This document shows, piece by piece, positions 1-13,543 of a stretch of 46,100 bases of DNA. Below the pieces are notes generated by a model that had not been told where the DNA came from, did not search any database, and worked only from the letters and a program-made list of their open reading frames with translations. The stretch spans positions 1 to 46,100 of the forward strand of contig DAIRSW010000004.1 in assembly GCA_036804205.1 (NCBI GenBank). Reading direction: 5' to 3'. Each line of letters starts with the position of its first letter. Positions within the stretch are counted from its first letter, which is position 1. The stretch comes from Verrucomicrobiia bacterium (GTDB taxonomy: Bacteria; Verrucomicrobiota; Verrucomicrobiia; Chthoniobacterales; CALDSX01). A program made the position numbers and the translations under genes.

Positions 1-18
1 TGTGCTTGGGTTTTTGCC

Positions 19-975
19 ATGAACGAGGAAGGCTCCATTCACCAGCCGCACGACAAGCTTTTTAAGTCGACCTTTTCGCATCCCGAGAATGCCAGGCCGC
101 TTTTGTGTCATCACTTGCCGGATAAGCTGGTGGCTTCTCTCGATTGGGCCACTCTTGCCCTCAAGCCGGGTTCTTTTATCGATTCTCAGTTTCGATTGAG
201 TGAAAGCGACTTGCTTTTTGCCGTGAAATCAAACTCCGGGCAGGTCCTGATTCACATTCTGTTTGAGCATCAGAAAAAGGATGATCCTGATCTGATGTTT
301 CGATTGCTTCGTTACAAGACGCGGATTTGGGAAACGTTTTCCGGCCCACCGGGCAGCAAGCGGCCGATGATTGTTTCTGTTGTGCTAGCCCAGAACGCCA
401 CCCACTGGGAAGCGCCGCAGCAGTTTGCTGATCTTATCGATGTCACCGCAGGCGGAGAGAAGTTTGTGCCAGACTTTAGTTATGTGCTCATTCAATTGGC
501 GGATCTGCCTTTTGATCATATCGCCGGAACCCCGGATGGAATTTTGGTGATGCGAACTTTCAAGGCCGAGGCGGGTAATGAGTTGTTAGCAGATGAACTG
601 TGGGATACGGAGCTTTTTCGAAAGGCGAGTGCGCAAACCTTCGAGATGGTACTCGGCTACATGCTTTCGAGGAACATTGACAAAGCGGCCTTCAGCACTA
701 AAATTACAGAAATTCAAGATGCGAATATTCGCGATAAAGCTATGACACTCGCTGAACAATTTAAAGAAGAAGGGCTGCAAAAAGGACTTGAGCAAGGACT
801 CTTACGAGGCCGCGAAGAAGGCCGCGAAGAAGGTCGCGAGGAAGGCATGTTGATTGGACAGATCCGGAGTCTTCAAGAGATTTTGCACGAACCTTTAACG
901 CCGGAAGAAGCGCTTTTCACAATGGATCGTGACGCCCTCCGCGACATGGTGAAAGAGCTTAAAGCCCGTTTTTGA
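19..975 (+). CDS. Rpn family recombination-promoting nuclease / putative transposase (YhgA-like, PD-(D/E)XK)
   Basis: 318 aa ORF. The N-terminal HQPHDKLFKSTF motif and overall layout are typical of the YhgA/Rpn (Transposase_31) family. The C-terminal ~80 aa is a charged helical tail containing a (REEG)x3 repeat. Confidence 0.8.
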   Translation: MNEEGSIHQPHDKLFKSTFSHPENARPLLCHHLPDKLVASLDWATLALKPGSFIDSQFRLSESDLLFAVKSNSGQVLIHILFEHQKKDDPDLMFRLLRYKTRIWETFSGPPGSKRPMIVSVVLAQNATHWEAPQQFADLIDVTAGGEKFVPDFSYVLIQLADLPFDHIAGTPDGILVMRTFKAEAGNELLADELWDTELFRKASAQTFEMVLGYMLSRNIDKAAFSTKITEIQDANIRDKAMTLAEQFKEEGLQKGLEQGLLRGREEGREEGREEGMLIGQIRSLQEILHEPLTPEEALFTMDRDALRDMVKELKARF

Positions 976-1030
976 CCACAGCTTCTTCCAGCTGGGCACA
1001 GATAGGAGCCTTTGATTGATGGGCTAGGGT

Positions 1031-1303
1031 GTGCTTGGGTCTTTGCATGAACGTATTCGCGATAAAGCTATGACACTCGCTGAACAATTTAAAGAAGAAG
1101 GGCTGCAAAAAGGACTTGAGCAAGGACTCTTACGAGGCCGCGAAGAAGGCCGCGAAGAAGGTCGCGAGGAAGGCATGTTGATTGGACAGATCCGGAGTCT
1201 TCAAGAGATTTTGCACGAACCTTTAACGCCAGAAGAAGCGCTTTTCACAATGGATCGTGACGCCCTCCGCGAGATGGTGAAAGAGCTTAAAGCCCGTTTT
1301 TGA
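1031..1303 (+). CDS. Rpn C-terminal-domain-only protein, from an internally deleted tandem copy of the upstream rpn gene; likely translated from ATG 1070 (77 aa)
   Basis: nt 1054-1307 match nt 726-979 with 2 substitutions. The protein equals residues 242-318 of the full-length ORF with one D-to-E change. The leader 1031-1053 matches nt 2-25. Confidence 0.55.
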   Translation: MLGSLHERIRDKAMTLAEQFKEEGLQKGLEQGLLRGREEGREEGREEGMLIGQIRSLQEILHEPLTPEEALFTMDRDALREMVKELKARF

Positions 1304-1307
1304 CCAC
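1031..1307 (+). repeat. Tandem partial duplication: leader (copy of 2-25) fused to a copy of 726-979
   Basis: Direct base-by-base comparison. The offset is 328 nt, with 2 mismatches in 254 nt. The leader has 1 substitution and a 1-nt deletion. A more diverged third leader-like stretch lies at about 1354-1375. Confidence 0.95.
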
Positions 1308-1475
1308 CTTTCCGTAGCGGCACAGGTAGGGGTTTATGCTTATCAAGCCCGCTGTGTGCTTTCGTCCGGCCAACGCCGGGACTCCAAATTGCCCGTTTTT
1401 TCAGCGCCGCACTCTTGGAGCTCTCCGGCCTTGCTGTCAGCGCTAGGACAAATGAAGTGTGCGAGGCCCAGCAAT

Positions 1476-1865
1476 TCAGGTGGTGGCTTCATCCTGGAGA
1501 GCCAAAATATCTTGGATGGCTTGCTCGGGATCTTTGATCTGACCGCCCCAGGAGAGGATGCGAGCTTTAGCTCCGGCGGCCTCGGCTTGTTTAATGCGAT
1601 GATCGCGCACGTAAAAGAGAGAGAGACTTGACCAAGCCAACTGATCCTGCGGCTGAAGTCTGACCGCGCTTAGTCCTGCCTCAATCGCCTCCGGATAACG
1701 TCCGAGTTTCATCAAAGTCATGGCAAACGCATGCCAGCCATCAAAATGGTCCGGCGCGGCAACAGTGATTTGTTGGAACTTCTCGGCCGCAGCGGCGAGG
1801 TCGCCGATCGCAACGTCCCCGCTGGCGTCGTCAAAGAGGGTTTCTAGATTTTCGGGTAGCTCCAC
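1476..1865 (-). CDS. small TPR-repeat protein
   Basis: 129 aa ORF with TPR-like helical repeats (AFAMTLMKLGRYPEAIEAGLSAVRLQP). It lies 15 nt downstream of the DUF59 gene on the same strand. Confidence 0.6.
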   Translation of the reverse strand: MELPENLETLFDDASGDVAIGDLAAAAEKFQQITVAAPDHFDGWHAFAMTLMKLGRYPEAIEAGLSAVRLQPQDQLAWSSLSLFYVRDHRIKQAEAAGAKARILSWGGQIKDPEQAIQDILALQDEATT

Positions 1866-1880
1866 AACGATATATCGTGC

Positions 1881-2420
1881 TTACTGCATGCCCAAGATTT
1901 CACGTCCCGCAGCGGAAATGAGTTCGGCGCTCCAAAGCGGTTCCCAGACCACATCGACGTTGGCTTCGGTGATGCTTGGGATGCTTTCGATTTTCATCTT
2001 GGCATCCTGAGCAATGCTTGGGCCCATCCCGCAGCCGGGTGCGGTGAGAGTCATGTCCACCTCAACCCGGTCGCCTTGCTCGCCGGGTTTGATTTCCATG
2101 CGATACACCAAACCGAGATCGACGATGTTCACTGGGATTTCCGGATCAAATACCGTTTTGAGTTGAGCCCAAACCTGATCCTCCAACGAGCCTTTTTGTG
2201 CTTCGGCCTCATGGGTATCGATGCTTAGGCCGAGGGCGTCGGCGTCGGAACCGTGGACGCGAAATAGGCCGGCTTGACTGGGAATGAGAACAGTAAAGGA
2301 TCCGCCTAAACTTTGGGTGATGACTAGTTCTGCTCCGGCAGGAAGGTCGAAAGGATCGCCGCTCGGAATGCGAATGGCAGTGAGGGCACGATTGGTGGTG
2401 ACGGTTGAGGCGTGTTCCAT
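1881..2420 (-). CDS. DUF59 / MIP18-family Fe-S cluster assembly protein (SufT-like) with an N-terminal extension
   Basis: C-terminal half carries VFDPEIPVNIVDLGLVY ... LTAPGCGMG ... V.WEP.W, the characteristic DUF59 signature. Confidence 0.7.
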   Translation of the reverse strand: MEHASTVTTNRALTAIRIPSGDPFDLPAGAELVITQSLGGSFTVLIPSQAGLFRVHGSDADALGLSIDTHEAEAQKGSLEDQVWAQLKTVFDPEIPVNIVDLGLVYRMEIKPGEQGDRVEVDMTLTAPGCGMGPSIAQDAKMKIESIPSITEANVDVVWEPLWSAELISAAGREILGMQ

Positions 2421-2467
2421 ATAAAAAGCTTTGTTTGGGCTTTATACTATCAGAAATCTTGAGCTTG

Positions 2468-2937
2468 CCAAGGCTTTGGAGGGGCATGGGAATTGTTAGA
2501 ACATGCCCCACAGCTTTCTCTGCATTTGGTGTTCGCACGTTCGCACAAAAGACCGCGCCAGCGTAATCACCCCCGGTTGGAAGCCGTGGCGCCGGCGTGA
2601 CGTATGGCGAGCGTTATTTGGGGCAGCAGCATTGTCCACCGCCCCCATGGGGCGGTTCGTGTGTTGCGCAACCACCGGTGGCTTGCGCCACCGGCTACTA
2701 CCCTTACGGCCCTGCCGGGCCAAGTACATTCCGCAAACAAACTGGCCAAGGGGCGAAATCTCATGAGCTGTTCGCACGCTACCAACTCTGCTGGGTGGTC
2801 TTTTGTCCAGCAACCAATCTGTTTGGGGGCTATCAACGCAACGTGTGACTCAGGGGGCAGCCGTGGAGCGGGGGCTTTGTGCTTCTTGGAGTGACTTTTC
2901 TCTTGTCGACACAGCGGATTGGCATGATAAAGAGCGC
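2468..2937. other. Candidate structured RNA / highly structured GC-rich intergenic region (class and strand unresolved)
   Basis: Divergent intergenic region. Perfect 8-bp hairpins at 2481-2509, 2638-2656 and 2675-2694, and a 5-bp hairpin at 2708-2721. A ~17-bp long-range helix pairs 2545-2563 with 2789-2806. Overlapping ORFs in five of the six frames show a lack of stop codons. Confidence 0.35.
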
Positions 2938-4086
2938 GTGTTAGGATTTTTTCAGCCCCGGTATCTACGCGAAGGGAAGATCGTGGTAAAAAGCGCTCGC
3001 AAGATTTTGCGGCATGAAAAAGATCGTCTTGGCGAGGAGAAATTGGCAAAACTGGAGCAGCAGGTTGATGCCTTGCAGGAAGCCGTCGCCTCAGGCAAGG
3101 CGGACGCCATTCAGAAGGCTCAAGCGCAGACGGAGAAGGCCTTTGCCAAAGTCCCTGGCGCTAAAGTCAGTGCTTGGAGGGAGAATGTGGAGGTTATCGT
3201 CGTGGCGGTGGTATTGGCTTTGGGTGTACGCACCTATCTTTTGCAGCCTTTTAAGATTCCGACCGGATCGATGCAGCCGACATTAAACGGAATCATTGGC
3301 ACCCCGATGGAGGAGGACGAAGAGTTTCCGCCCGGGTGGCAACGGCTCGCCGAAGCAGCTTTTTTAGGAAGACAATATTTTGAGATCGTCAGCCGGAATG
3401 ATGAGCATGTGGTGGAATTGCGTGAGCAACAGAAATTTCTTCTATTCACCGAGACTGAAATTATAACCACACGATCCCGTTATGTGGTGCCAGCTTCTAG
3501 TGCTGTGGTGGAACAGGACTTCGAGGTGAGACCGGGTAAAGCATTTCAGCCTGGGGAAATTATCGCGCGTGGCGCGGTGGATACAGGCGACCAGGTTTTG
3601 GTGGACAAGATCTCCTATCATTTTGTGCCGCCTCGCCGGAGTGAGGTGTTTGTCTTTCGTACCACCGCGATTCGTGGCATTCGGATTCCGGCTAATATGG
3701 GGGCGCAACATTATATTAAACGTTTGGCCGGTTTGCCGGGCGATAGCTTGCAGATTCAACCGCCGAATCTCCTGGTGAACGGGAGAATTGCCGAAGAGCA
3801 GGCTTTTCGGCGAGTCATGAGCCAGGAAGATGGTTATGTAGGATACTTTTTGGGAAGTAAAGGAGTAGGGCAACCGGAGCTGGGAGAGATGGGAGCCCAA
3901 CGCTCATACCTCACTTCGGAGTTTGAACGCTTCACACTTCCGGAAGGCGAATACTTCGCGCTGGGGGACAATAGTAACCGGAGCTTTGATAGTCGTGGAT
4001 GGGGCACTGTGCCTGAAAGAAATTTAGTGGGCCGGGGGATGATCGTCTATTATCCATTTAACAAGCACTGGGGATTGATCCAGTAG
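2938..4086 (+). CDS. lepB: signal peptidase I
   Basis: Boxes GSMQPTL (Ser), GDQVLVDK, YIKRLAGLPGD (Lys) and GDNSNRSFDSRGWG. The ORF is open from 2803, but the in-frame GTG at 2938 (MLGFFQPRYLREGK...) is a more plausible start. The upstream part overlaps the structured region. Confidence 0.85.
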   Translation: MLGFFQPRYLREGKIVVKSARKILRHEKDRLGEEKLAKLEQQVDALQEAVASGKADAIQKAQAQTEKAFAKVPGAKVSAWRENVEVIVVAVVLALGVRTYLLQPFKIPTGSMQPTLNGIIGTPMEEDEEFPPGWQRLAEAAFLGRQYFEIVSRNDEHVVELREQQKFLLFTETEIITTRSRYVVPASSAVVEQDFEVRPGKAFQPGEIIARGAVDTGDQVLVDKISYHFVPPRRSEVFVFRTTAIRGIRIPANMGAQHYIKRLAGLPGDSLQIQPPNLLVNGRIAEEQAFRRVMSQEDGYVGYFLGSKGVGQPELGEMGAQRSYLTSEFERFTLPEGEYFALGDNSNRSFDSRGWGTVPERNLVGRGMIVYYPFNKHWGLIQ

Positions 4087-4122
4087 GCAGGGCGGCTGGT
4101 CTGGTCGCACGATGAGGGCACC

Positions 4123-5328
4123 ATGATTGCTTGGATAGATTGGATCGACTGGACTGTCGAAACATGGATTGTACTGGTGGGATGGGGCTTGGTATTGATC
4201 GGGTATGTGGTCCTAATGCAGTTTCAAGGGGCATCACGCGCGTTCCAGCAAGGGCGGCGTTGCGTCCAGCGCTACACCATTTTGCAGTGGCTCCCGGGTT
4301 GGTTTGGTTTTTTTTATGTGCTGTGGGTTTACATCAAGGAAGGGTTGCTCCGTTGGTATGCGCAGGACCGGGTGGAACCACTGCTGCCGTGGGGGGAAGG
4401 ATGGCAGGGATTGGATTGGTTGGGAGTTTGGGCGCCGGAGATGTTTTGGCTGGGCCTCGAAAAGTTGGCAGGCCTGTTTCATGTGGTGGCAACGCCAGGA
4501 CCGTTGACTTTGTTTTTGGCGGCGTGGTTATTGACTCAGCCGGCTGGTCTAACCGTGGTGAAGCAGCTTTACACACGGTTTGGACGTTGGAGCTGGTGTT
4601 TCTATAGCGCGTTGTCCTTCGGATTGATTGGGGTGTTGCTGCGATGGTTTTACATCCTGCCACCGTCTTGGTGGCCGAGTGCGTTTTTCCAATCCAACTG
4701 GATGATGATTTTTGGGGTGCTCGAGATTTTCGCCCTGATGTTTGAGTATGCTTTGGCCTACGGGGTGCAACTGTACCTGATCTTGTTTGTGATCAACTGG
4801 ATCAATGGTCGTGCGGCCCGGCCATCCGTGTTGACGGAACAATCCGCCCGGCGATGGGTGGCTTCTTTAATTTGGGTAGGTCCCTTGGCGCTTCTTGGAG
4901 CGAGTCTGGTCCAAGGCCTTTGGCTTATGGAAATGTTTGGAGTGCTGGCGGAGGGGGAAGCGGAACAGCTGGTGCCACGGGCTCGGGCGGTGTTAAGTTT
5001 AGTCGTTATTGCCGGTGCGAGTTTTCAGTGGCGCTTGCTGATGCTGGATACGCCTGTGACCAAGTTGGTTGCCCAAGAGCGTGTTTTAATCCGGCAACGC
5101 GGGGGAGAAGTCTTTTGGTTCATGCTGGTAGCAAGCTTGCACCTGGGCTTGTTGATTCTCCTTGAGACGACTGTGAATCAGAGCATCGGTGATTGGAATC
5201 TCGTAGCCCTACTGGTGCGGCTGGGCTTTGCTCTGGTCTGGGGCTGGCTTTTGGGGTGGTTGTTGGCAGCATGGATTTGTCTGCTGGCTGGAGGCCGCCT
5301 GTTCGGCAAGCATCGTCTGACCTACTAG
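4123..5328 (+). CDS. polytopic inner-membrane protein of unknown function
   Basis: 401 aa, Trp/Leu-rich, with about 9-10 hydrophobic segments. I recognise no family motif. It sits 36 nt downstream of lepB. Confidence 0.6.
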   Translation: MIAWIDWIDWTVETWIVLVGWGLVLIGYVVLMQFQGASRAFQQGRRCVQRYTILQWLPGWFGFFYVLWVYIKEGLLRWYAQDRVEPLLPWGEGWQGLDWLGVWAPEMFWLGLEKLAGLFHVVATPGPLTLFLAAWLLTQPAGLTVVKQLYTRFGRWSWCFYSALSFGLIGVLLRWFYILPPSWWPSAFFQSNWMMIFGVLEIFALMFEYALAYGVQLYLILFVINWINGRAARPSVLTEQSARRWVASLIWVGPLALLGASLVQGLWLMEMFGVLAEGEAEQLVPRARAVLSLVVIAGASFQWRLLMLDTPVTKLVAQERVLIRQRGGEVFWFMLVASLHLGLLILLETTVNQSIGDWNLVALLVRLGFALVWGWLLGWLLAAWICLLAGGRLFGKHRLTY

Positions 5329-5391
5329 TTTGCGGTGAGGAGCGACGTCGCTGGGCCGAAACTCGTTTCGAGTTCCTCTCCAGCATCTGGC

Positions 5392-7338
5392 CTATTCCTC
5401 GACGCTGGCGAGCCGGGTGAGCACGCTAAGGTCTTCTAATGTGGTGGTGTCACCGGAAATTGCGCTGCCGCTGGCGATTTCTTTGAGCAAGCGTCGCATG
5501 ATTTTGCCACTGCGGGTTTTAGGCAGCGCTTCGGCAAAACGAACTTCGTCCGGTCGTGCAATAGGCCCAATCATTTGAGCCACATGTTTTCTGAGTTCCT
5601 GCTGCAGATCCTGAGTGGCTTTGACGCCTTGCTTCACGGTAACAAAAGCGACCACGCCTTGGCCTTTGATTTCGTCTGGCCGGCCTACTACGGCGGCTTC
5701 GGCTACGGCATGGTGACTGACTAAGGCGCTTTCAATTTCGCTGGTGCCGAGGCGGTGGCCGGCCACGTTAAGCACGTCATCAATCCGGCCCACGATCCAG
5801 AAGTTGCCGTCGGCATCGCGCCGGGCCCCGTCGCCAGTAAAATACCAGCCCGCAAATTCGCTCCAATAGGTTTTTTGAAAGCGTTCGGGGTCACCGTAAA
5901 TGCCGCGGAGCATGCTGGGCCAGGGTTTGCGGATGACCAATTTGCCCCCGGTGTTGGGAGGAACTTCTTGGCCTTGATCATCCACCACCGCGACATCCAC
6001 GCCAAAGAAAGGGAGAGTGGCGGTGCCTGGTTTGCATGGTGTGGCACCAGGTAGTGGGGTGATCATGATAGCCCCGGTTTCGGTTTGCCACCAGGTGTCC
6101 ACAATGGGGCAGCGGCCTCCTCCGATGACTTGGTGATACCACATCCAGGCTTCCGGATTGATGGGTTCGCCCACGGTGCCCAAAAGCCTGAGCGAGCTGA
6201 GATCGTGTTTGGCCGGCCAATGGTCACCAGCTTTAATAAAGGCTCGGATGGCGGTGGGGGCGGTATAAAGAATATTGACCCCCCAGGACTCAACGAGTTG
6301 CCAGAAACGGTCTGGCTCCGGCCAGTTGGGCGCGCCTTCGTACATGAGCACGGTGGCCCCGTTGGAAAGCGGGCCGTAGACGAGGTAACTGTGCCCGGTA
6401 ATCCAGCCTACGTCGGCGGTGCACCAGTAGACATCGTTTTCTTGAAGATCGAAAACCATTTGGCTGGTCATCGTAGCACCCAGAAGATAACCGGCACTGC
6501 TGTGAAGAATGCCTTTCGGTTTTCCGGTGGAACCGCTGGTGTAAAGGATGAAAAGTGGATGCTCACTATCGAGCTCTTCGGGCGGGCAGTTGGCGTCGAC
6601 GTATTCAAGTTCGCGATGCCACCAGACATCGCGGCCTGGTTCAATATGGATATCGTTGTTGGCGCGTCGGAAGACCACCACTTTTTGTACGGCATGCTCG
6701 CCTTCAAGAGCATGATCAACGTTCTTTTTTAGGGGCACGATGGAGCCTCGACGATAGCCGCCGTCGGCGGTGATGATGAGTTTGGCCCCGCTGTCTTTCA
6801 GCCGGTCTTTGATGGCTTCGGAGCTGAAGCCTCCAAAAACCACGGAGTGCACTGCACCCAGGCGAGCACAAGCCAGCATGGCGATGGCGGCTTCGGGGAT
6901 GAGCGGCATGTAGATTAAAACGCGATCGCCCTTTTGCAGACCTTGGCGTTTGAGCACATTGGCGAAGCGGCAGGTTTCGCGGTGCAATTGCTGGTAAGTG
7001 AGGGTGCGTTTTTCGCCTGGTTCACCTTCCCAGAGGATGGCGGCTTTGTTGCGGCGTTCGCCTAGGGCATGCCGATCGACGCAATTTGCGCACACATTGA
7101 GCTGACCTCCATCGAACCAGCGTGCATGAGGTGGCTGCCAGTCAAGGACACGTTCGAACGGCTTGAGCCAAGTGAGGTATTTCTCAGCTTGTTCTTTCCA
7201 AAAAGCCTCGGGCTCACCAAGGGAGCGCTGATGCGCTTGTTGGTAGTCAGAGAAGGAGTTGAGTCGCGCATTTTCCGCAAAGTCGGTAGGAGGAAGAAAC
7301 ACGCGATCTTCTTGAAGGTGGGATTCGATATTGTTCAT
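5392..7338 (-). CDS. acs: acetyl-CoA synthetase (AMP-forming)
   Basis: Full-length match to the Acs architecture: [14 protein letters not shown]-binding motif and a C-terminal [11 protein letters not shown]. The ORF is open to 7389, but [14 protein letters not shown] at 7338 is the conventional start. Confidence 0.95.
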
Positions 7339-7470
7339 AGGGGAAAAAAGGAATGAGAGTATGCAAACTAAGACCGGGGCTGTGCGCAAGACGCGAATAC
7401 CTAAAAATAGAGGCGGTTTTCTAAGGAAAAAAAGGATTCGTTTTTGTGTCTGGCTTAATTTTGGGCCACG

Positions 7471-8658
7471 TTGTCGGATATGAAGCGTGTTTTAGTGATG
7501 TCTGCTAGTGCGGGAACGGGCCACGTGCGAGCTGCGGAGGCCTTGGTGAAGGCTTTTAGCAACGATCCACTTGTGGAGCGGGTGATCCACGAGGATGCGT
7601 TAAACTATACCAATACGTTTTTCCGCGATTTCTACTCTAAGTTTTACACTCAGCTGGTGCGGTTTGCGCCAGAGTTTCTTGGCTGGTGGTACGATGCCAG
7701 CGACGAGCCTTGGAAAACGGATCGAATGCGGATCGCACTGGATCGCTTGAACACCGGACCTTTGGTGAAAATGATTAAGCAGTTCGATCCTCACATTACG
7801 GTGTGCACCCATTTTATGCCGGCCGGCATTATGTCACACCTGATTGCTAAAGAGGTTTTAGAGGCGCATTTATCGATTGTGGTGACGGACATGGATTTTC
7901 ATGCGATGTGGTTGTCCAGGGTGTTTCACCGATATTTTGTGGCTATTGATGAAACGCGAGCGCATTTGCAAGCTTTAGGACTTCCCCAAGAGCGTATTTC
8001 GGTAACAGGGATCCCGGTGGACCCTGTATTTGCGGAGCCAGTCGATGTGGAAAGTGCACGGAAATCGTATGGCTTGCAACCGGATCGTCCGACCCTCTTG
8101 GTGAGCGCAGGTGCTCTTGGGGTTAGCCCGGCGGAGTTTGTGGTCGAGCGCTTAAGGACCCTTAACGAAGCCTATCAGGTGGTGGTGGTTTGTGGCAAGA
8201 ACCATGAGCTTCGGGACAAACTTCGGCAGGCTCACGCGGATGTGCATCCACGATTTTTAATCTTGGGTTACACCGACGAAATGCATGTGCTGATGAAAAT
8301 GAGTGACCTCTACATTGGCAAGCCGGGTGGTCTGACCACGGCTGAGACCTTAGCCTGCGGCCTGCCCATGATCATTGTTGACCCTATACCCGGTCAAGAA
8401 GAACGTAACAGTGATCATCTTCTGGAGGACGGAGTGGCGGTTAAGTGCAACGAATACACAACAATCCCGTATAAGGTGGAGCGCTTGTTTGGGAATCCCG
8501 GCCGTTTGGAGGGTATGCGCCAACGCGCGAAAGCCCTTGGGCAGCCCAATGCAGCGACAAAAATCGCGCAGACCTTAATACATGATAAGCTGCCGCCTTT
8601 GACCTTTAGTAAGCAAGAAAGGGATAATATCGCACAACAAGCCTCGGGGGGAGATTAA
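7471..8658 (+). CDS. MGDG-synthase-like glycosyltransferase (GT28 family, diacylglycerol glycosyltransferase-like)
   Basis: N-terminal [15 protein letters not shown] and a C-terminal [10 protein letters not shown]...P..GQE..N pattern, typical of MGDG_synth plus Glyco_tran_28_C proteins. Alternative ATG start at 7480. Confidence 0.8.
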
Positions 8659-8668
8659 AACGTGACAT

Positions 8669-10201
8669 ATGGCGGGCATGGAGCAGGAACAAACATTTTT
8701 TTGGGGGGTGAGCACCTCAGCCTATCAATCTGAGGGAGGCTATAACGGACCCGGACAGCCACACAATAACTGGGCTTTGGTGGAGAAGCAGGGGCGTGTC
8801 GAAACAACGGGTGCCACATCCGAGTTTTGGACTCGATATGAGGAGGATTTTCGGCACTGCCAGGATATGGGGCTGAACGCCTTCCGGCTTGGTTTAGAGT
8901 GGACCCGCTTGCAACCGGAACGCCCGGAATCCTTGGCGGATATTGAACAGACGGCCCTTGTTCAATATGCAAAGATGATTGCGAGTTGTCGTGACTTTGG
9001 GATGGAACCCATCGTGACCCTGCATCACTTCACCCACCCAGTTTGGCTGGGCTCGGATGCCTGGCTGGATTCCGCCACCGCGGGAGCGTTTGCCGAATTC
9101 GCAGTGGCGCTCATTCGGCAGTTGAATGACCAGCTGGAGAAGGCGCATCAACAAGAGCCGTTAAAGTATTTTATCACGATTAACGAGCCTAATATGTTGG
9201 CTTTGAACACCTATTTCGGGCGGCAATTTCCAAGTCAAACCCGGTCCGGCCCGAAGATTGTGATGAGGGCGTATGACACCCTTTTAAACGCTCATTTAAA
9301 GTGCTACCAGGGCTTGCATGCGCTTTATCGCAAGCAAGGATGGTCCACGCCGAAGATTAGTTTGAATACCTACTGTAGCGACTGTTACTGGAACGATCTT
9401 GTTCTTTGGCATTCCATTGATGCCCGACGGCGGGGTGTGAAGTTGGACGATGTGAGTGAATTCTTGCGCTTCGAGGCGCGGGAGTTCGATAAGAAATTTC
9501 GACGTGCTAAACTCCCCCTGAGTTGGAATTTGCCGCGTGTGTTTGGCACCTTCGTCCATCAAATAGGCAATGCCATCGGCAGAAAGCATTTTAAACCGTC
9601 CAATTTGCCGGAGAGTCTCAGAACTTTGTACGAGACCGAGGAAGAGGGGAGCTTTGATTTTGTGGGGCTCGATTATTACGATCCTTTTGTGTCGCACACC
9701 TTCCGTTTTCCAAGACTCTCGGATATCGAGCAGCGGCATCCAAGTTTTCGAGCTTGGATGATGAACGCGGTCACCAGCAAGTGGTGGGATTGGCGGGTGC
9801 TGCCGAAAGGCTTACACTTTTTTTGTCAAACCTACACAGACAGTTTACAGCGGCCCATTTTTATTGCCGAAAATGGCATGGCGCTAGCGCGACGGTGGAA
9901 TAACCGCCCTATTAACCGTCGAGATGGCATGACTCGGAGCGAGTTTTTGCGGCTGCATGTGGCCGAGGTGTGCCGGATGCGCGCGGAGGAAATTCCGATC
10001 ATGGGCTACATGCATTGGTCGCTTACCGATAATTATGAGTGGGGATCCTTTACACCACGCTTCGGTTTGTTTACCATTGATTACCATGTCAGTCGAGATC
10101 GCATTGCCTATGACCACTTGGAAGATTGTCCCTCAGAAACCTACCGGGGCTTGGTGGCCAATAGCTGCCGGCTTATGGAGGAGTGGAAAGAGGCCCACTA
10201 G
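8669..10201 (+). CDS. glycoside hydrolase family 1 (beta-glucosidase-like)
   Basis: FFWGVSTSAYQSEGG N-terminal signature, TINEPN acid/base motif and IAENG nucleophile motif. Confidence 0.85.
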   Translation: MAGMEQEQTFFWGVSTSAYQSEGGYNGPGQPHNNWALVEKQGRVETTGATSEFWTRYEEDFRHCQDMGLNAFRLGLEWTRLQPERPESLADIEQTALVQYAKMIASCRDFGMEPIVTLHHFTHPVWLGSDAWLDSATAGAFAEFAVALIRQLNDQLEKAHQQEPLKYFITINEPNMLALNTYFGRQFPSQTRSGPKIVMRAYDTLLNAHLKCYQGLHALYRKQGWSTPKISLNTYCSDCYWNDLVLWHSIDARRRGVKLDDVSEFLRFEAREFDKKFRRAKLPLSWNLPRVFGTFVHQIGNAIGRKHFKPSNLPESLRTLYETEEEGSFDFVGLDYYDPFVSHTFRFPRLSDIEQRHPSFRAWMMNAVTSKWWDWRVLPKGLHFFCQTYTDSLQRPIFIAENGMALARRWNNRPINRRDGMTRSEFLRLHVAEVCRMRAEEIPIMGYMHWSLTDNYEWGSFTPRFGLFTIDYHVSRDRIAYDHLEDCPSETYRGLVANSCRLMEEWKEAH

Positions 10202-10211
10202 CGTGCCAGGT

Positions 10212-10595
10212 ATGTTTTGCCTCGTGGCAGCGTTCTTGCTGTCAGGGGCGTCAGCCCATGCTCAAGAGGAAGCCCTAGTTGAAGAGAAGGTCTACAGCGC
10301 TGATGATTTTGAAGGCTTGGTGGCCGCCGAGGGAACTCATGTTGCTGTGCAAGGACTCATCAGGGAGGTTGGACGTGATGCACAGTCGGGGACGGTTTTT
10401 TTGAACTTTGAGGGAGCTGGTCGCAATGGTTTTTATTGTTTGGTGTTTCCCAGGAATTTTATCAATTTTCCCGAAACAGACTTTGAATCGATCTATTCAA
10501 ACCAATCCGCGGTGGTCACCGGAACGATCGCGATTCATCGGGGACAGCCTCAGATTATTCTAGAGAATCCAGAGCAGGTGAGTGTTGCTGAGTGA
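10212..10595 (+). CDS. small secreted protein of unknown function
   Basis: The 9957 ORF overlaps the GH1 gene. The ATG at 10212 gives MFCLVAAFLLSGASAHA, a signal peptide, followed by a ~105 aa domain. The fold is not identified. Confidence 0.55.
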   Translation: MFCLVAAFLLSGASAHAQEEALVEEKVYSADDFEGLVAAEGTHVAVQGLIREVGRDAQSGTVFLNFEGAGRNGFYCLVFPRNFINFPETDFESIYSNQSAVVTGTIAIHRGQPQIILENPEQVSVAE

Positions 10596-12125: not shown

Positions 12126-12201
<76 letters not shown>

Positions 12202-12301
12202 CTTTCCTGCAAAAAGAACAGCAGCGGACTTGCGAGCCCTATTTGCGATCTACGGTATCCGTGGGCTTTGCCTTTCTTGAAAAGGATATAGGCTACCTCC
12301 C

Positions 12302-13543
12302 ATGAGTGATTCCATCGTCATTGCAGCTTATCGCAACGAGGCGAAACAGCTTGAAGAAATAATTCTTCAAGCCATTGAGCGTGACTTAGAGTCGGTAGGG
12401 CAGTTTTTGTTTCGTCGGATGGAGCCATGCGATTTTGTCTCTACAGATTCCCAAACTCGATATGATGACTTACGCAAACAGCATCAGAAAACCAGCACTC
12501 TCATCCTCAATGGAGCGAAGTCGACCTGCCAAAAGCTTGTCTTGGCCGTCTCCCGACTTTCTCTCTTGGCGGCGAGTCTTAGGACGTATGAGCAATGCAA
12601 GCTCACACTTGAATCGCTCGAAAACAACCCTGCCGAGCTTGCGGAGATTCTTGCTGCGCATCTTGCCAGCGTCTCCCAGGAAGGAGTCAACTCCGAAAGA
12701 CGAGTTCTGCCTTTCTATTCTTACAAGCAGCACAATACCGAACAGAGCGTGATAGAGTTTTTGGATGACCTTGAAGTGATGCTTAAGGCGACGCGTCAGG
12801 CTGCCCCGACAGAAAAGCTCGACTGGGGCCCGGTGCATTGGCTCAACGCACGAACTGGAGGTATTCCTCCTGCGAGTGTGTCTTTAATCTTGGGTTCAAA
12901 AGGAGCAGGAAAATCTTTGTTCGCGCAATCCGTTCTGCTGTCGGCGGTTGCCAAGGACCAAGCGGTCCATCTGATGAGCCTGCGCGACTCGGTCGAGTCG
13001 ATTGCCAGAAGATTGCTTACGGCGGGCGCACAAATTGATCTGTCTACTGTGTCTAAAGGTATCTCTACAACGACTATGGAGAGCCTGATGAAAGTCAGTG
13101 TTTTGATCGCGGAAAAGTTGACCTCAAGCGAGCTGGTCGCGCCACATGCGAGCCTTTTGACACCGGTGGCCGAGCGGGCGCTTCATGAGCACGGATTCAA
13201 GCTTATCGTTATTGAGGATATCGACTCATGCCTGGCCAGAGACGGAAAGTCGCTCAACGAAATCGAACTGAGAAACGCGCTGCGGCAGCTTAGTGGATTG
13301 GCTAGAAGAACCGGCGTGCGGGTGGTGGTCACCTGCCATGCTGACATCGGCGATACCGTGGTGAGTCATTCGCACTGCGCAGATTATGTGTTTCACCTCC
13401 ACCCACCTGAGTTGGGATCGCATGAATCTACTTATAGCTTGGAGATTCTCCGGAACGCGCTTGGCCCTCTTGGTAGCGTCAAGCTCATTTTGCAAGCCCG
13501 TTTGCAAGGCTTTTTTGAGTATATCGAAGGGAGCGTTTTCTAG
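12302..13543 (+). CDS. divergent DnaB-like / RecA-superfamily ATPase (DnaB C-terminal-domain-like), function unknown
   Basis: 413 aa. Walker A GSKGAGKS (res 198-205), Walker B-like LIVIEDID, and DnaB-like block order (TGG...G...GK, SL..S, hhhhD, ADYV..L). Several DnaB catalytic positions are substituted. Confidence 0.65.
   Translation: MSDSIVIAAYRNEAKQLEEIILQAIERDLESVGQFLFRRMEPCDFVSTDSQTRYDDLRKQHQKTSTLILNGAKSTCQKLVLAVSRLSLLAASLRTYEQCKLTLESLENNPAELAEILAAHLASVSQEGVNSERRVLPFYSYKQHNTEQSVIEFLDDLEVMLKATRQAAPTEKLDWGPVHWLNARTGGIPPASVSLILGSKGAGKSLFAQSVLLSAVAKDQAVHLMSLRDSVESIARRLLTAGAQIDLSTVSKGISTTTMESLMKVSVLIAEKLTSSELVAPHASLLTPVAERALHEHGFKLIVIEDIDSCLARDGKSLNEIELRNALRQLSGLARRTGVRVVVTCHADIGDTVVSHSHCADYVFHLHPPELGSHESTYSLEILRNALGPLGSVKLILQARLQGFFEYIEGSVF

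Follow-up and report, generated by a model that had tools for sequence, protein, structure and literature searches.

The window analysed here, a 46,100-nt stretch of a Verrucomicrobiia bacterium contig, opens on what is probably an rpn toxin–antitoxin or defence-type locus in which the antitoxin module occurs a second time as a gene of its own, the rpnSs arrangement. As in the rpnE-ypaA and rpnC-rpnCSs pairs of E. coli, a copy of the C-terminal module, lacking the nuclease domain, follows an rpn gene in the same orientation and starts at a conserved Met (MT[LI]AE...). Such separate downstream rpnS copies, ypaA (rpnESs) after rpnE and rpnCSs after rpnC, were described by Zhong et al. (2023), and the RpnESs protein has been detected in E. 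coli (PMC10400941). The locus is a new example of this known layout and not a new kind of system. An earlier, sequence-only reading of the same DNA had supposed an extragenic short copy to be undescribed, which the two E. coli pairs contradict; its account of the E. coli literature, in which rpn genes yield a toxic long nuclease (RpnL) and a small C-terminal protein from an internal start (RpnS) that neutralizes it, with the pair acting in phage defence, was accurate (PMC10400941). The current picture of Rpn systems is left unchanged, and the interest of the locus is that it provides a clean, very young Verrucomicrobiota example of the 'second RpnS copy' layout of E. coli, from a distant phylum, with the tandem and fused states both visible in near-identical strains.

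Judged by its sequence, the long gene, rpnL (positions 19–975, forward strand; 318 aa from ATG19), is a full-length member of the Rpn/YhgA family of PD-(D/E)XK nucleases. In profile searches its product matched PF04754 over residues 9–180 (135.4 bits, E = 2.6e-39, cut-off 21) and TIGR01784 (63.7 bits, cut-off 52.1), both above the curated cut-offs and in line with its initial description as rpn-like, and E. coli RpnE aligned to the long protein at 26% identity (E = 7e-25). The active-site motif appears to be kept, with D64, E83 and H84 invariant and Q85 nearly so across the sequences of 36 homologs; in an alignment with E. coli RpnE they fall on its SD...EHQ motif. Public annotation gives the rpn gene 329 aa by starting it at a TTG 33 nt upstream of ATG19, and on that basis the start of the window may clip the gene; in the consensus of the homolog alignment, wider homologs start at the ATG19 position. 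An exact-product look-up of the 318-aa protein found no match, a result to be read beside the public gene calls, in which the upstream TTG is used. Sequence searches of the PDB with the long protein and with a 36-sequence profile gave no match at E ≤ 10, and PADLOC reported no Rpn-type match, only a weak 'C3a178 putative invertase' match on the repeat tract. Matches to Yae1_N and FliH were rejected, as they sit on the G-x-x-x repeat tract, which is of low complexity. The genes around the locus are housekeeping genes, and no defence island was seen.

The C-terminal tail of the long protein carries what read as the hallmarks of RpnS, namely a conserved internal Met, variable 4-aa repeats and a positionally conserved promoter-like site. 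The putative intragenic rpnS frame (742–975, forward strand) runs from Met242 to the stop codon (77 aa), and this Met is invariant in the 36 homologs and aligns with Met244 of E. coli RpnE, the first residue of YpaA/RpnESs. RpnS repeats were defined as 4-aa repeats that start 8–20 residues after the internal Met and vary in number among close homologs. The tail contains six such tetrads (GLQK GLEQ GLLR GREE GREE GREE, 12 nt each; 772–843, forward strand), beginning 10 residues past Met242, compared with nine and four in two paralogs at 81–82% identity (P0001 and P0002, respectively). Inside rpnL, a promoter-like site (TTGACA-16 nt-TAAAAT; 677–704, forward strand) with 11/12 consensus matches ends 37 nt before ATG742. 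In a survey sample of 85 Verrucomicrobiota rpn genes, 30 have a matching site whose end lies at precisely this distance from the conserved ATG, and of 39 promoter-like sites detected at any position in the 85 genes, 35 fall in this single 37-nt bin. The 677–704 site may function as a promoter, with the caveat that its -35 hexamer overlaps conserved IDK codons.

The PF14261 (DUF4351) profile found no match at E ≤ 1 in either ORF and is present in a few homologs; because the RpnS region has been described as highly variable, the missing match does not argue against the RpnS reading. Nor does a Shine-Dalgarno motif precede ATG742 or ATG1070, the start of the downstream copy, which is uninformative because the genome seldom uses the motif (among 30 likely genes of the window, 5 have one). 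An alignment-based AlphaFold2 model of the 77-aa protein (pLDDT 87, compared with 74 for a first, single-sequence model) predicts a long helix followed by two short helices (residues 3–47, 55–59 and 63–76), and RpnS is described as a bundle of three helices, the first of them long (RpnAS, PDB 7TH0) (PMC10400941). Foldseek searches of the PDB with both models returned nothing meaningful (best E = 3.6, for the pLDDT 87 model) and did not retrieve 7TH0. The long gene shares with intragenic RpnL/RpnS systems (E. coli RpnA, RpnB, RpnC and RpnP2; C. difficile) a PF04754 domain, a conserved internal Met, a promoter-like site just before that Met and variable 4-aa repeats in the predicted long first helix. 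Unlike those systems, its tail has no PF14261 match, its internal start has no Shine-Dalgarno motif and its identity to RpnE is about 26%.

Downstream, nt 726–979 are repeated at 1054–1307 on the forward strand with two differences in 254 nt (99%). Alignment of the repeats places these at G903 versus A1231 (CCG to CCA, Pro295, synonymous) and C945 versus G1273 (GAC to GAG, Asp309 to Glu), and agrees with the one synonymous and one D-to-E change read from the letters beforehand. Missing from copy 2 are nt 26–725 (700 nt), and with them the whole PF04754 domain, which confirms the view of the short unit as an internally deleted tandem copy that retains only the tail, about 700 nt of the nuclease part being gone; no microhomology is evident by eye at the 25|726 junction. 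The putative stand-alone rpnS gene (rpnSs type; 1070–1303, forward strand) shows 99.2% DNA identity to 742–975 and would encode 77 aa, without the nuclease domain, that equal the intragenic RpnS except for Asp to Glu at residue 68, with the same six tetrads at 1100–1171. A 77-aa short gene is also called in the annotation of GCA_964521725.1.

The locus has peculiarities of its own: the apparent internal promoter is gone, the copy is fused out of frame to the leader of the putative toxin gene, the parental repeat number is kept and the flanks are far more diverged than the coding part. ATG1070 is preceded by the same 16 nt as the internal start ATG742, and copy 2 has no counterpart of the promoter-like site at 677–704; neither a sigma-70-like promoter site nor a terminator-like site was found in the spacer (976–1053). 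ATG1047, the copy of the rpn start codon, does not share the reading frame of the retained tail, for which the in-frame starts are GTG1031, TTG1043 and ATG1070. It opens an 8-codon mini-ORF as read from the sequence (MNVFAIKL, then a stop codon; 1047–1073, forward strand), the TGA of which overlaps ATG1070 as ATGA. We propose that the 77-aa product initiates at ATG1070 and that the short gene is probably co-transcribed with rpnL/rpnS, since nothing like a terminator separates them and the copy lacks its own promoter-like site. The short protein should bind and neutralize the long protein, as expected from the six repeats common to both, and would raise the antitoxin:toxin ratio. It is doubtful, in our estimation, that the copy is in addition a rewired antitoxin gene, in which the internal rpnS promoter has been swapped for the toxin leader and start, the mini-ORF provides coupling and gene conversion keeps the tail identical. 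If true, antitoxin synthesis would be coupled to toxin-type initiation signals via the ATGA overlap, and an extragenic antitoxin would evolve in concert with its target, repeat number included; the coupling role of the mini-ORF is conjectural.

The sequences flanking the two copies indicate how the tandem may have arisen. The window begins within the rpn 5' leader and includes just its 3' end (U1; 1–18, forward strand); the leader extends upstream of the window, and its missing sequence was supplied by the syntenic contigs L012 and L011. Paralogs L001 and L002 have the motif GTGTGCTT(G/C)GGT in their leaders too. Positions 1–17 recur at 1030–1046 with one mismatch, and the pattern has no other occurrence in the 46 kb at up to three mismatches. 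Up to the junction, the leader of copy 2 shows one substitution and a 1-nt deletion (CC to C before the ATG). The sequence-only reading had taken this leader for a copy of nt 2–25, which was right as to its being a copy and too short as to its extent, as 996–1053 matches sequence upstream of window position 1. The spacer (976–1053, forward strand) consists of the 3' flank of copy 1 (T1) followed by a second leader copy (U2) and the first 7 nt of the coding sequence; its 3' half agrees with U1 at 38 of 44 positions, and its 5' half more closely resembles the flank that follows copy 2 (18 of 23). Beyond copy 2 lies a diverged third 3' flank and leader (T2+U3; 1308–1385, forward strand), the relic of a further unit, and the proposal that the locus duplicated more than once is borne out. 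The recurrence is real but weak: 5 of 3000 shuffles attained its gapped local score of 15, and none of 2200 other windows taken from the sequence did so. A 10-nt match to the 3' end of the gene (GCCCGTTTTT, 1391–1400) was considered as a further relic and rejected as too short to claim.

Divergence amounts to 2 of 254 nt in the coding repeat versus 5 of 45 in the leader (Fisher p = 0.001), and identity falls abruptly 4 nt past the stop codon. We propose the following origin. Leader-like direct repeats on either side of the gene would have recombined unequally to make a tandem copy, leaving U2 as a U3/U1 hybrid, and a later internal deletion would have taken out nt 26–725. As the uneven divergence suggests, the coding repeat would afterwards have been homogenized with the parent tail.

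An independent MAG assembly that is 99.96% identical (contig L012) shows the same tandem (two mismatches and one gap in 10,371 nt). A third MAG (L011), 99.9% identical, carries one fused gene there, which agrees with copy 1 at 903 and with copy 2 at 945 and then passes into the copy-2 flank; T2+U3 follows this gene as well. We regard it as a probable fusion, most likely derived from a crossover between the two 254-nt repeats, with assembly collapse in that MAG as a possible alternative. L011 as the ancestral, pre-duplication state was rejected because the T1+U2 spacer is too diverged from U1 and T2+U3 to postdate the split of 99.9% identical strains. It is very improbable that the tandem copy is itself an assembly artefact: a closely related MAG does have a single gene at the site and 254-nt repeats are difficult for short-read assemblers, but the unit contains unique sequence, with a new junction (25|726) and a spacer unlike either U1 or U3, none of which an assembler would invent, the independent assembly shows the identical structure, and collapse in the single-copy MAG would be the likelier artefact, if any. 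JGI metagenome contigs, a collection without this organism, were scanned for the deletion junction and for shared sequence and gave no match. The window locus resembles E. coli rpnSs in that the copy is derived from the adjacent gene and has 4-aa repeats, and in that its presence is strain-variable and it can be lost when the N-terminal part becomes fused to the copy downstream; independent origins and loss by fusion have been reported for separate rpnS copies (PMC10400941).

The survey of related genomes that the sequence-only reading had called for recovered the long-plus-short layout elsewhere, with nuclease-less adjacent copies at nine distinct loci among the 85 Verrucomicrobiota rpn genes (about 1 in 10). 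Of the ten extra copies, nine keep an uninterrupted frame that runs from the conserved Met to the usual end, with dS up to 0.46, and the tenth (L052) has an in-frame stop. Their pooled dN/dS of 0.18 (72 synonymous and 43 non-synonymous differences) is below the expectation if one partner evolved neutrally, and at seven of the nine loci the stand-alone copy and the long gene beside it have unequal numbers of repeats. This small survey suggests that adjacent nuclease-less copies are common in Verrucomicrobiota, usually under purifying selection and often repeat-mismatched with their neighbour.

These figures bear on a competing explanation, unlikely yet to be taken seriously, in which the short unit is a non-functional, decaying remnant of the tandem duplications and deletions to which rpn loci are prone and looks intact only through recent homogenization with, or copying from, its parent. 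Its native start has lost the frame of the tail and the internal promoter-like site has been deleted, the relic immediately after it is more decayed, the unit is missing from a 99.9% identical strain, the extra copy of L052 has its stop and E. coli ypaA is a pseudogene in the RefSeq annotation. With only two differences from the parent, intactness requires no selection; one synonymous and one non-synonymous difference are too few to gauge selection on the copy. The relatives' copies argue the other way, being mostly open at appreciable dS with a low pooled dN/dS, as do the production of the E. coli counterpart RpnESs as a protein (PMC10400941) and a repeat number held equal to that of the parent. 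The lost internal promoter-like site, the lack of a sigma-70-like site in the spacer, the out-of-frame copied start and the absence of the copy from a near-identical strain also count against the preferred reading of a second antitoxin copy, as do the housekeeping neighbourhood, the failure of the model to retrieve a PDB structure and a C-terminal domain that PF14261 does not recognize.

The repeat-number mismatches elsewhere lend something to a further alternative, in which the short protein is functional without being the cognate antitoxin and acts on other Rpn paralogs of the genome, as a decoy for a phage factor aimed at RpnS or as a small DNA-binding regulator. At least three rpn loci occur in the same MAGs, the published matching rule, by which unequal tetrad number should prevent cognate neutralization (PMC10400941), predicts none at the seven mismatched loci, and Zhong et al. 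relate RpnS to helix-turn-helix motifs by HHpred (PMC10400941). At the window locus, however, the repeats of the short copy agree nearly exactly in number and sequence with those of the gene beside it, and they are unlike those of the paralogs (9, 4 and 4, versus six), making a non-cognate role improbable here. The window locus and those surveyed offer candidates for testing the control of RpnL by RpnS dosage and by repeat matching.

Set beside its closest described counterpart, the window copy differs in several respects. K-12 ypaA is a tail-only tandem duplication that starts 14 nt before the internal ATG, including the Shine-Dalgarno motif, at the rpnE stop codon, and its protein is 75% identical with one extra tetrad, whereas the window copy is 99% identical with equal tetrads and lies 94 nt after the stop codon. 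Unlike ypaA, the window copy has a 5' leader and the first 7 nt of the coding sequence fused out of frame, and it retains only 16 nt of internal upstream context, without the internal promoter-like site. As in classical type II toxin–antitoxin systems, a small antitoxin gene would stand beside a toxin gene and would neutralize its product by direct binding; unlike in those systems, the antitoxin duplicates a domain of the toxin itself, would act dominant-negatively and coexists with an intragenic copy.

The same Verrucomicrobiales MAGs contain a second rpn locus (L003/L004), comprising a 318-aa rpn gene and a 68-aa short gene (P0121). It resembles the window locus in having a long gene followed by a stand-alone tail copy (84% identity) and a further degenerate unit start after the short copy. 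It differs in that just the tail unit is repeated, head to tail, with a period of 205 and then 181 nt, in the overlap of the short gene with the end of the long gene, and in a short copy that has two tetrads compared with four in the long gene.

The gene at the start of the window (19-975, forward strand; an ORF of 318 aa) encodes an Rpn-family nuclease, as the sequence-only reading had proposed. In profile searches its product matched PF04754 (Transposase_31, YhgA-like) with 135 bits over residues 9-180 and surpassed the cut-off of NCBIfam TIGR01784 (Rpn family; 63.7 versus 52.1 bits). A total of 1235 homologs were recovered at E ≤ 1e-3, the nearest being Verrucomicrobiales MAG proteins labelled 'Rpn family recombination-promoting nuclease/putative transposase'; E. 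coli RpnE aligned with 26% identity (E = 7e-25). D64, E83 and H84 were invariant, and Q85 nearly so, in an alignment of 36 homologs. In E. coli, rpn genes encode a toxic full-length nuclease, RpnL, and a small C-terminal protein, RpnS, whose promoter and start codon both lie inside the gene and which binds and blocks RpnL; repeat number differs between strains, and neutralisation requires equal numbers in RpnS and RpnL (Zhong et al. 2023, PMC10400941).

At the level of sequence, the tail of the window gene appears to bear the RpnS hallmarks published for E. coli. Met242 was invariant across the 36 homologs and aligned to Met244 of RpnE, which also corresponds to the first residue of YpaA, and six tetrads (GLQK GLEQ GLLR GREE GREE GREE; 772-843, forward strand) begin 10 residues past Met242. 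On the same strand, a promoter-like site (TTGACA-16-TAAAAT, 677-704, 11 of 12 consensus matches) ends 37 nt 5' of ATG742. Exactly this distance from the conserved ATG was found in 30 of 85 Verrucomicrobiota rpn genes, and the single -37 bin held 35 of the 39 promoter-like sites located anywhere in these genes. The site is a candidate conserved internal rpnS promoter within coding sequence, with the caveat that its -35 hexamer overlaps conserved Ile-Asp-Lys codons. In the 30 genes, whose proteins are only 40-50% identical, an exact TTGACA is separated by 16 nt from a TAnnnT hexamer. Shine-Dalgarno motifs (4-mer or longer) preceded just 5 of 30 likely genes of the window, so their absence at the internal start is uninformative; several ORF calls in the window begin with TTG or GTG. 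An AlphaFold2 model of the tail (18-sequence alignment, pLDDT 87) predicted helices at 3-47, 55-59 and 63-76, a layout resembling the one long helix and two more described for RpnAS, with no match to PDB structures by Foldseek or to PDB sequences.

A repeat search found nt 726-979 duplicated at 1054-1307 (254 nt, 99% identity) in a second unit that is without nt 26-725 (700 nt), and leader 1-17 duplicated at 1030-1046 with one mismatch. No further leader copies were found in the 46 kb at ≤3 mismatches, nor any other rpn-like sequence within the window. The tandem, internally deleted copy was therefore correctly described from sequence alone, including its two differences by pairwise alignment: G903 versus A1231 (CCG to CCA, Pro295, synonymous) and C945 versus G1273 (GAC to GAG, Asp309 to Glu). 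The copied leader carries one substitution and a 1-nt deletion, and the copied rpn start, ATG1047, is out of frame relative to the retained tail, opening an 8-codon mini-ORF (MNVFAIKL, forward strand) whose TGA (1071-1073) overlaps ATG1070 as ATGA. In-frame starts for the copied tail are GTG1031, TTG1043 and ATG1070. Only 16 nt of native context were kept 5' of the ATG, so that the internal promoter-like site was lost from the short unit. Neither promoter-like nor terminator-like sites were found between the long and short genes; the short gene would most likely be expressed by co-transcription with rpnL/rpnS.

An extragenic short copy of this kind had been thought undescribed, a claim that does not stand: rpnE is followed by ypaA (rpnESs), whose product has been detected, and some strains have rpnCSs after rpnC, such stand-alone copies having arisen independently from their upstream genes and being open to loss (PMC10400941); Koonin's commentary repeats the same point. 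The interpretation of the window locus is right in kind, and its layout is already known. Direct inspection of E. coli K-12 placed ypaA 12 nt after rpnE, within a duplication that begins 14 nt 5' of the internal ATG and thereby takes in the Shine-Dalgarno sequence of that start; at the protein level the two share 75% identity, with a difference of one tetrad. RefSeq labels ypaA (L010 7817-8002) a pseudogene, despite detection of its product, RpnESs, by Zhong et al. (PMC10400941). The retained leader, the out-of-frame fusion with an ATGA mini-ORF and the loss of the internal promoter-like site are particular to this locus and amount to variations on the published picture. The window probably contains an rpnL/rpnS locus with a spare antitoxin gene of the rpnSs type. 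The 77 aa encoded from ATG1070 would bind RpnL, given their equal repeat numbers, and so raise the dose of antitoxin. Family assignment, anatomy, variation between strains and conservation in relatives rest on the comparisons made here; that the genes are expressed, that RpnL is toxic, that the short protein binds it and that the locus serves in defence is inferred from E. coli.

A neighbouring 179-aa protein is identical in two public MAGs. Contig CAZFSL010000092.1 of GCA_964521725.1 shares 99.96% identity with window 1-10369 and carries the same tandem (gene calls of 329 and 77 aa). The sequence-only reading had allowed for an assembly artefact, and the recurrence of the tandem in an independent assembly makes one very improbable. 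Contig JBHJOT010000064.1 of GCA_050329435.1 (99.9% identical) has a single gene, with window 1-979 joined directly to 1308 onward; its tail agrees with copy 1 at position 903 and with copy 2 at 945. Since the spacer is far too diverged to have arisen after the strain split, the likeliest origin of this single gene is a secondary fusion through crossing-over of the two repeats, with assembly collapse a possible alternative. Both MAGs also contain a second rpn locus (L003 3067-4237, L004 identical), where just the tail unit is repeated head to tail and the end of a 318-aa PF04754 gene is overlapped by a 68-aa tail copy (84% identity to the tail; two tetrads versus four in the long gene). The last 7 codons of this long gene are the next unit in another frame; beyond it lies the degenerate start of a third unit, with ATA in place of ATG. 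The closest paralogs of the window protein, P0001 and P0002 (L001 6001-7026 and L002 6001-6969; 81-82% identity), differ from it mainly in the tetrad tract, with nine and four tetrads, five apart. Neither has a short copy beside it, and their chromosomal sites differ between the two MAGs and are specific to each strain, which fits the published view of rpn horizontal transfer.

With sequence 5' of the window taken from syntenic contigs, the leader 5' of the rpn gene (U1), the spacer between copies (T1+U2, 976-1053) and the segment after copy 2 (T2+U3, 1304-1380), all on the forward strand, proved to be three diverged versions of one unit, comprising ~20 nt of 3' flank and then a leader of ~58 nt. 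U2 agrees with U1 in its 3' half (38 of 44 positions) and is nearer T2+U3 in its 5' half (18 of 23); it is the kind of hybrid that unequal crossing-over would produce between leader-like repeats on either side of the gene. The diverged recurrence noted earlier after copy 2 was borne out, the U2/U3 similarity being weak but beyond chance: only 5 of 3000 shuffles, and none of 2200 genomic control windows, attained its score of 15. Low divergence in the coding repeat (2/254 nt versus 5/45 in the leader; Fisher p = 0.001) and an abrupt drop in identity 4 nt past the stop codon indicate a tandem older than its coding part suggests, for which the simplest account is recent gene conversion or re-copying of the tail. 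Diverged flanks around a near-identical coding repeat represent variation within the published recombination-prone rpn loci. The short unit could be an inert remnant, recently homogenised, which we consider possible if rather doubtful; the window pair, with one synonymous and one non-synonymous difference, is uninformative for dN/dS.

We extended the comparison to 80 loci, Verrucomicrobiota-dominated and drawn from one genome per species, by searching the last 85 residues of each of 85 full-length genes against its own locus. Nine distinct loci held a nuclease-less extra copy near the full gene, downstream (window locus, L003/L004, L025), upstream (L015, L052 with two copies, L054, L060) or further off (L037, L062). 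In 9 of 10 extra copies no stop interrupts the frame between the conserved Met and the usual C-terminus. Pooled long-versus-short comparisons gave a dN/dS of 0.18, based on 72 synonymous and 43 non-synonymous changes, lower than expected under drift of short copies. In seven of the nine loci the short copy differed in length from the adjacent tail, the difference lying in the tetrad tract in the sequences compared; the window pair and one other were equal in length. Under the published repeat-matching rule, length-mismatched copies should fail to neutralise their neighbour. For the length-matched window copy, a functional short protein directed at another partner is improbable. The L054 copy, which retains ~20 residues of the N-terminus joined in frame to its tail, is of the same internally deleted type as the window short unit. 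Copies on the Verrucomicrobiota MAG contigs L015, L025, L037, L052, L054, L060 and L062 often lie 5' of the long gene.

On an ENA metagenome scaffold (L005 1-4276), a 91-aa RpnS-like protein (P0129) follows a 268-aa ORF without a Pfam match. Genes for a GmrSD-like protein, a DNA methyltransferase and an HTH regulator lie beside them, and the two ORFs may represent an Rpn-like pair, split or divergent, within a defence island. On a JGI metagenome contig (L009 3316-4288), a 245-aa PF04754 ORF and a 95-aa tail ORF in another frame overlap by 53 nt; either a frameshift has disrupted an rpn gene, or toxin and antitoxin are naturally split here. Elsewhere in the window, a tRNA gene (12126-12198) is directly followed by a 413-aa DnaB_C/AAA_25/KaiC-type ATPase ORF (region 12126-13543), and the remainder is housekeeping (EF-G, GlnD, AcrB-type pump, ClpB, glutamate dehydrogenase, LepA and LptF/G).
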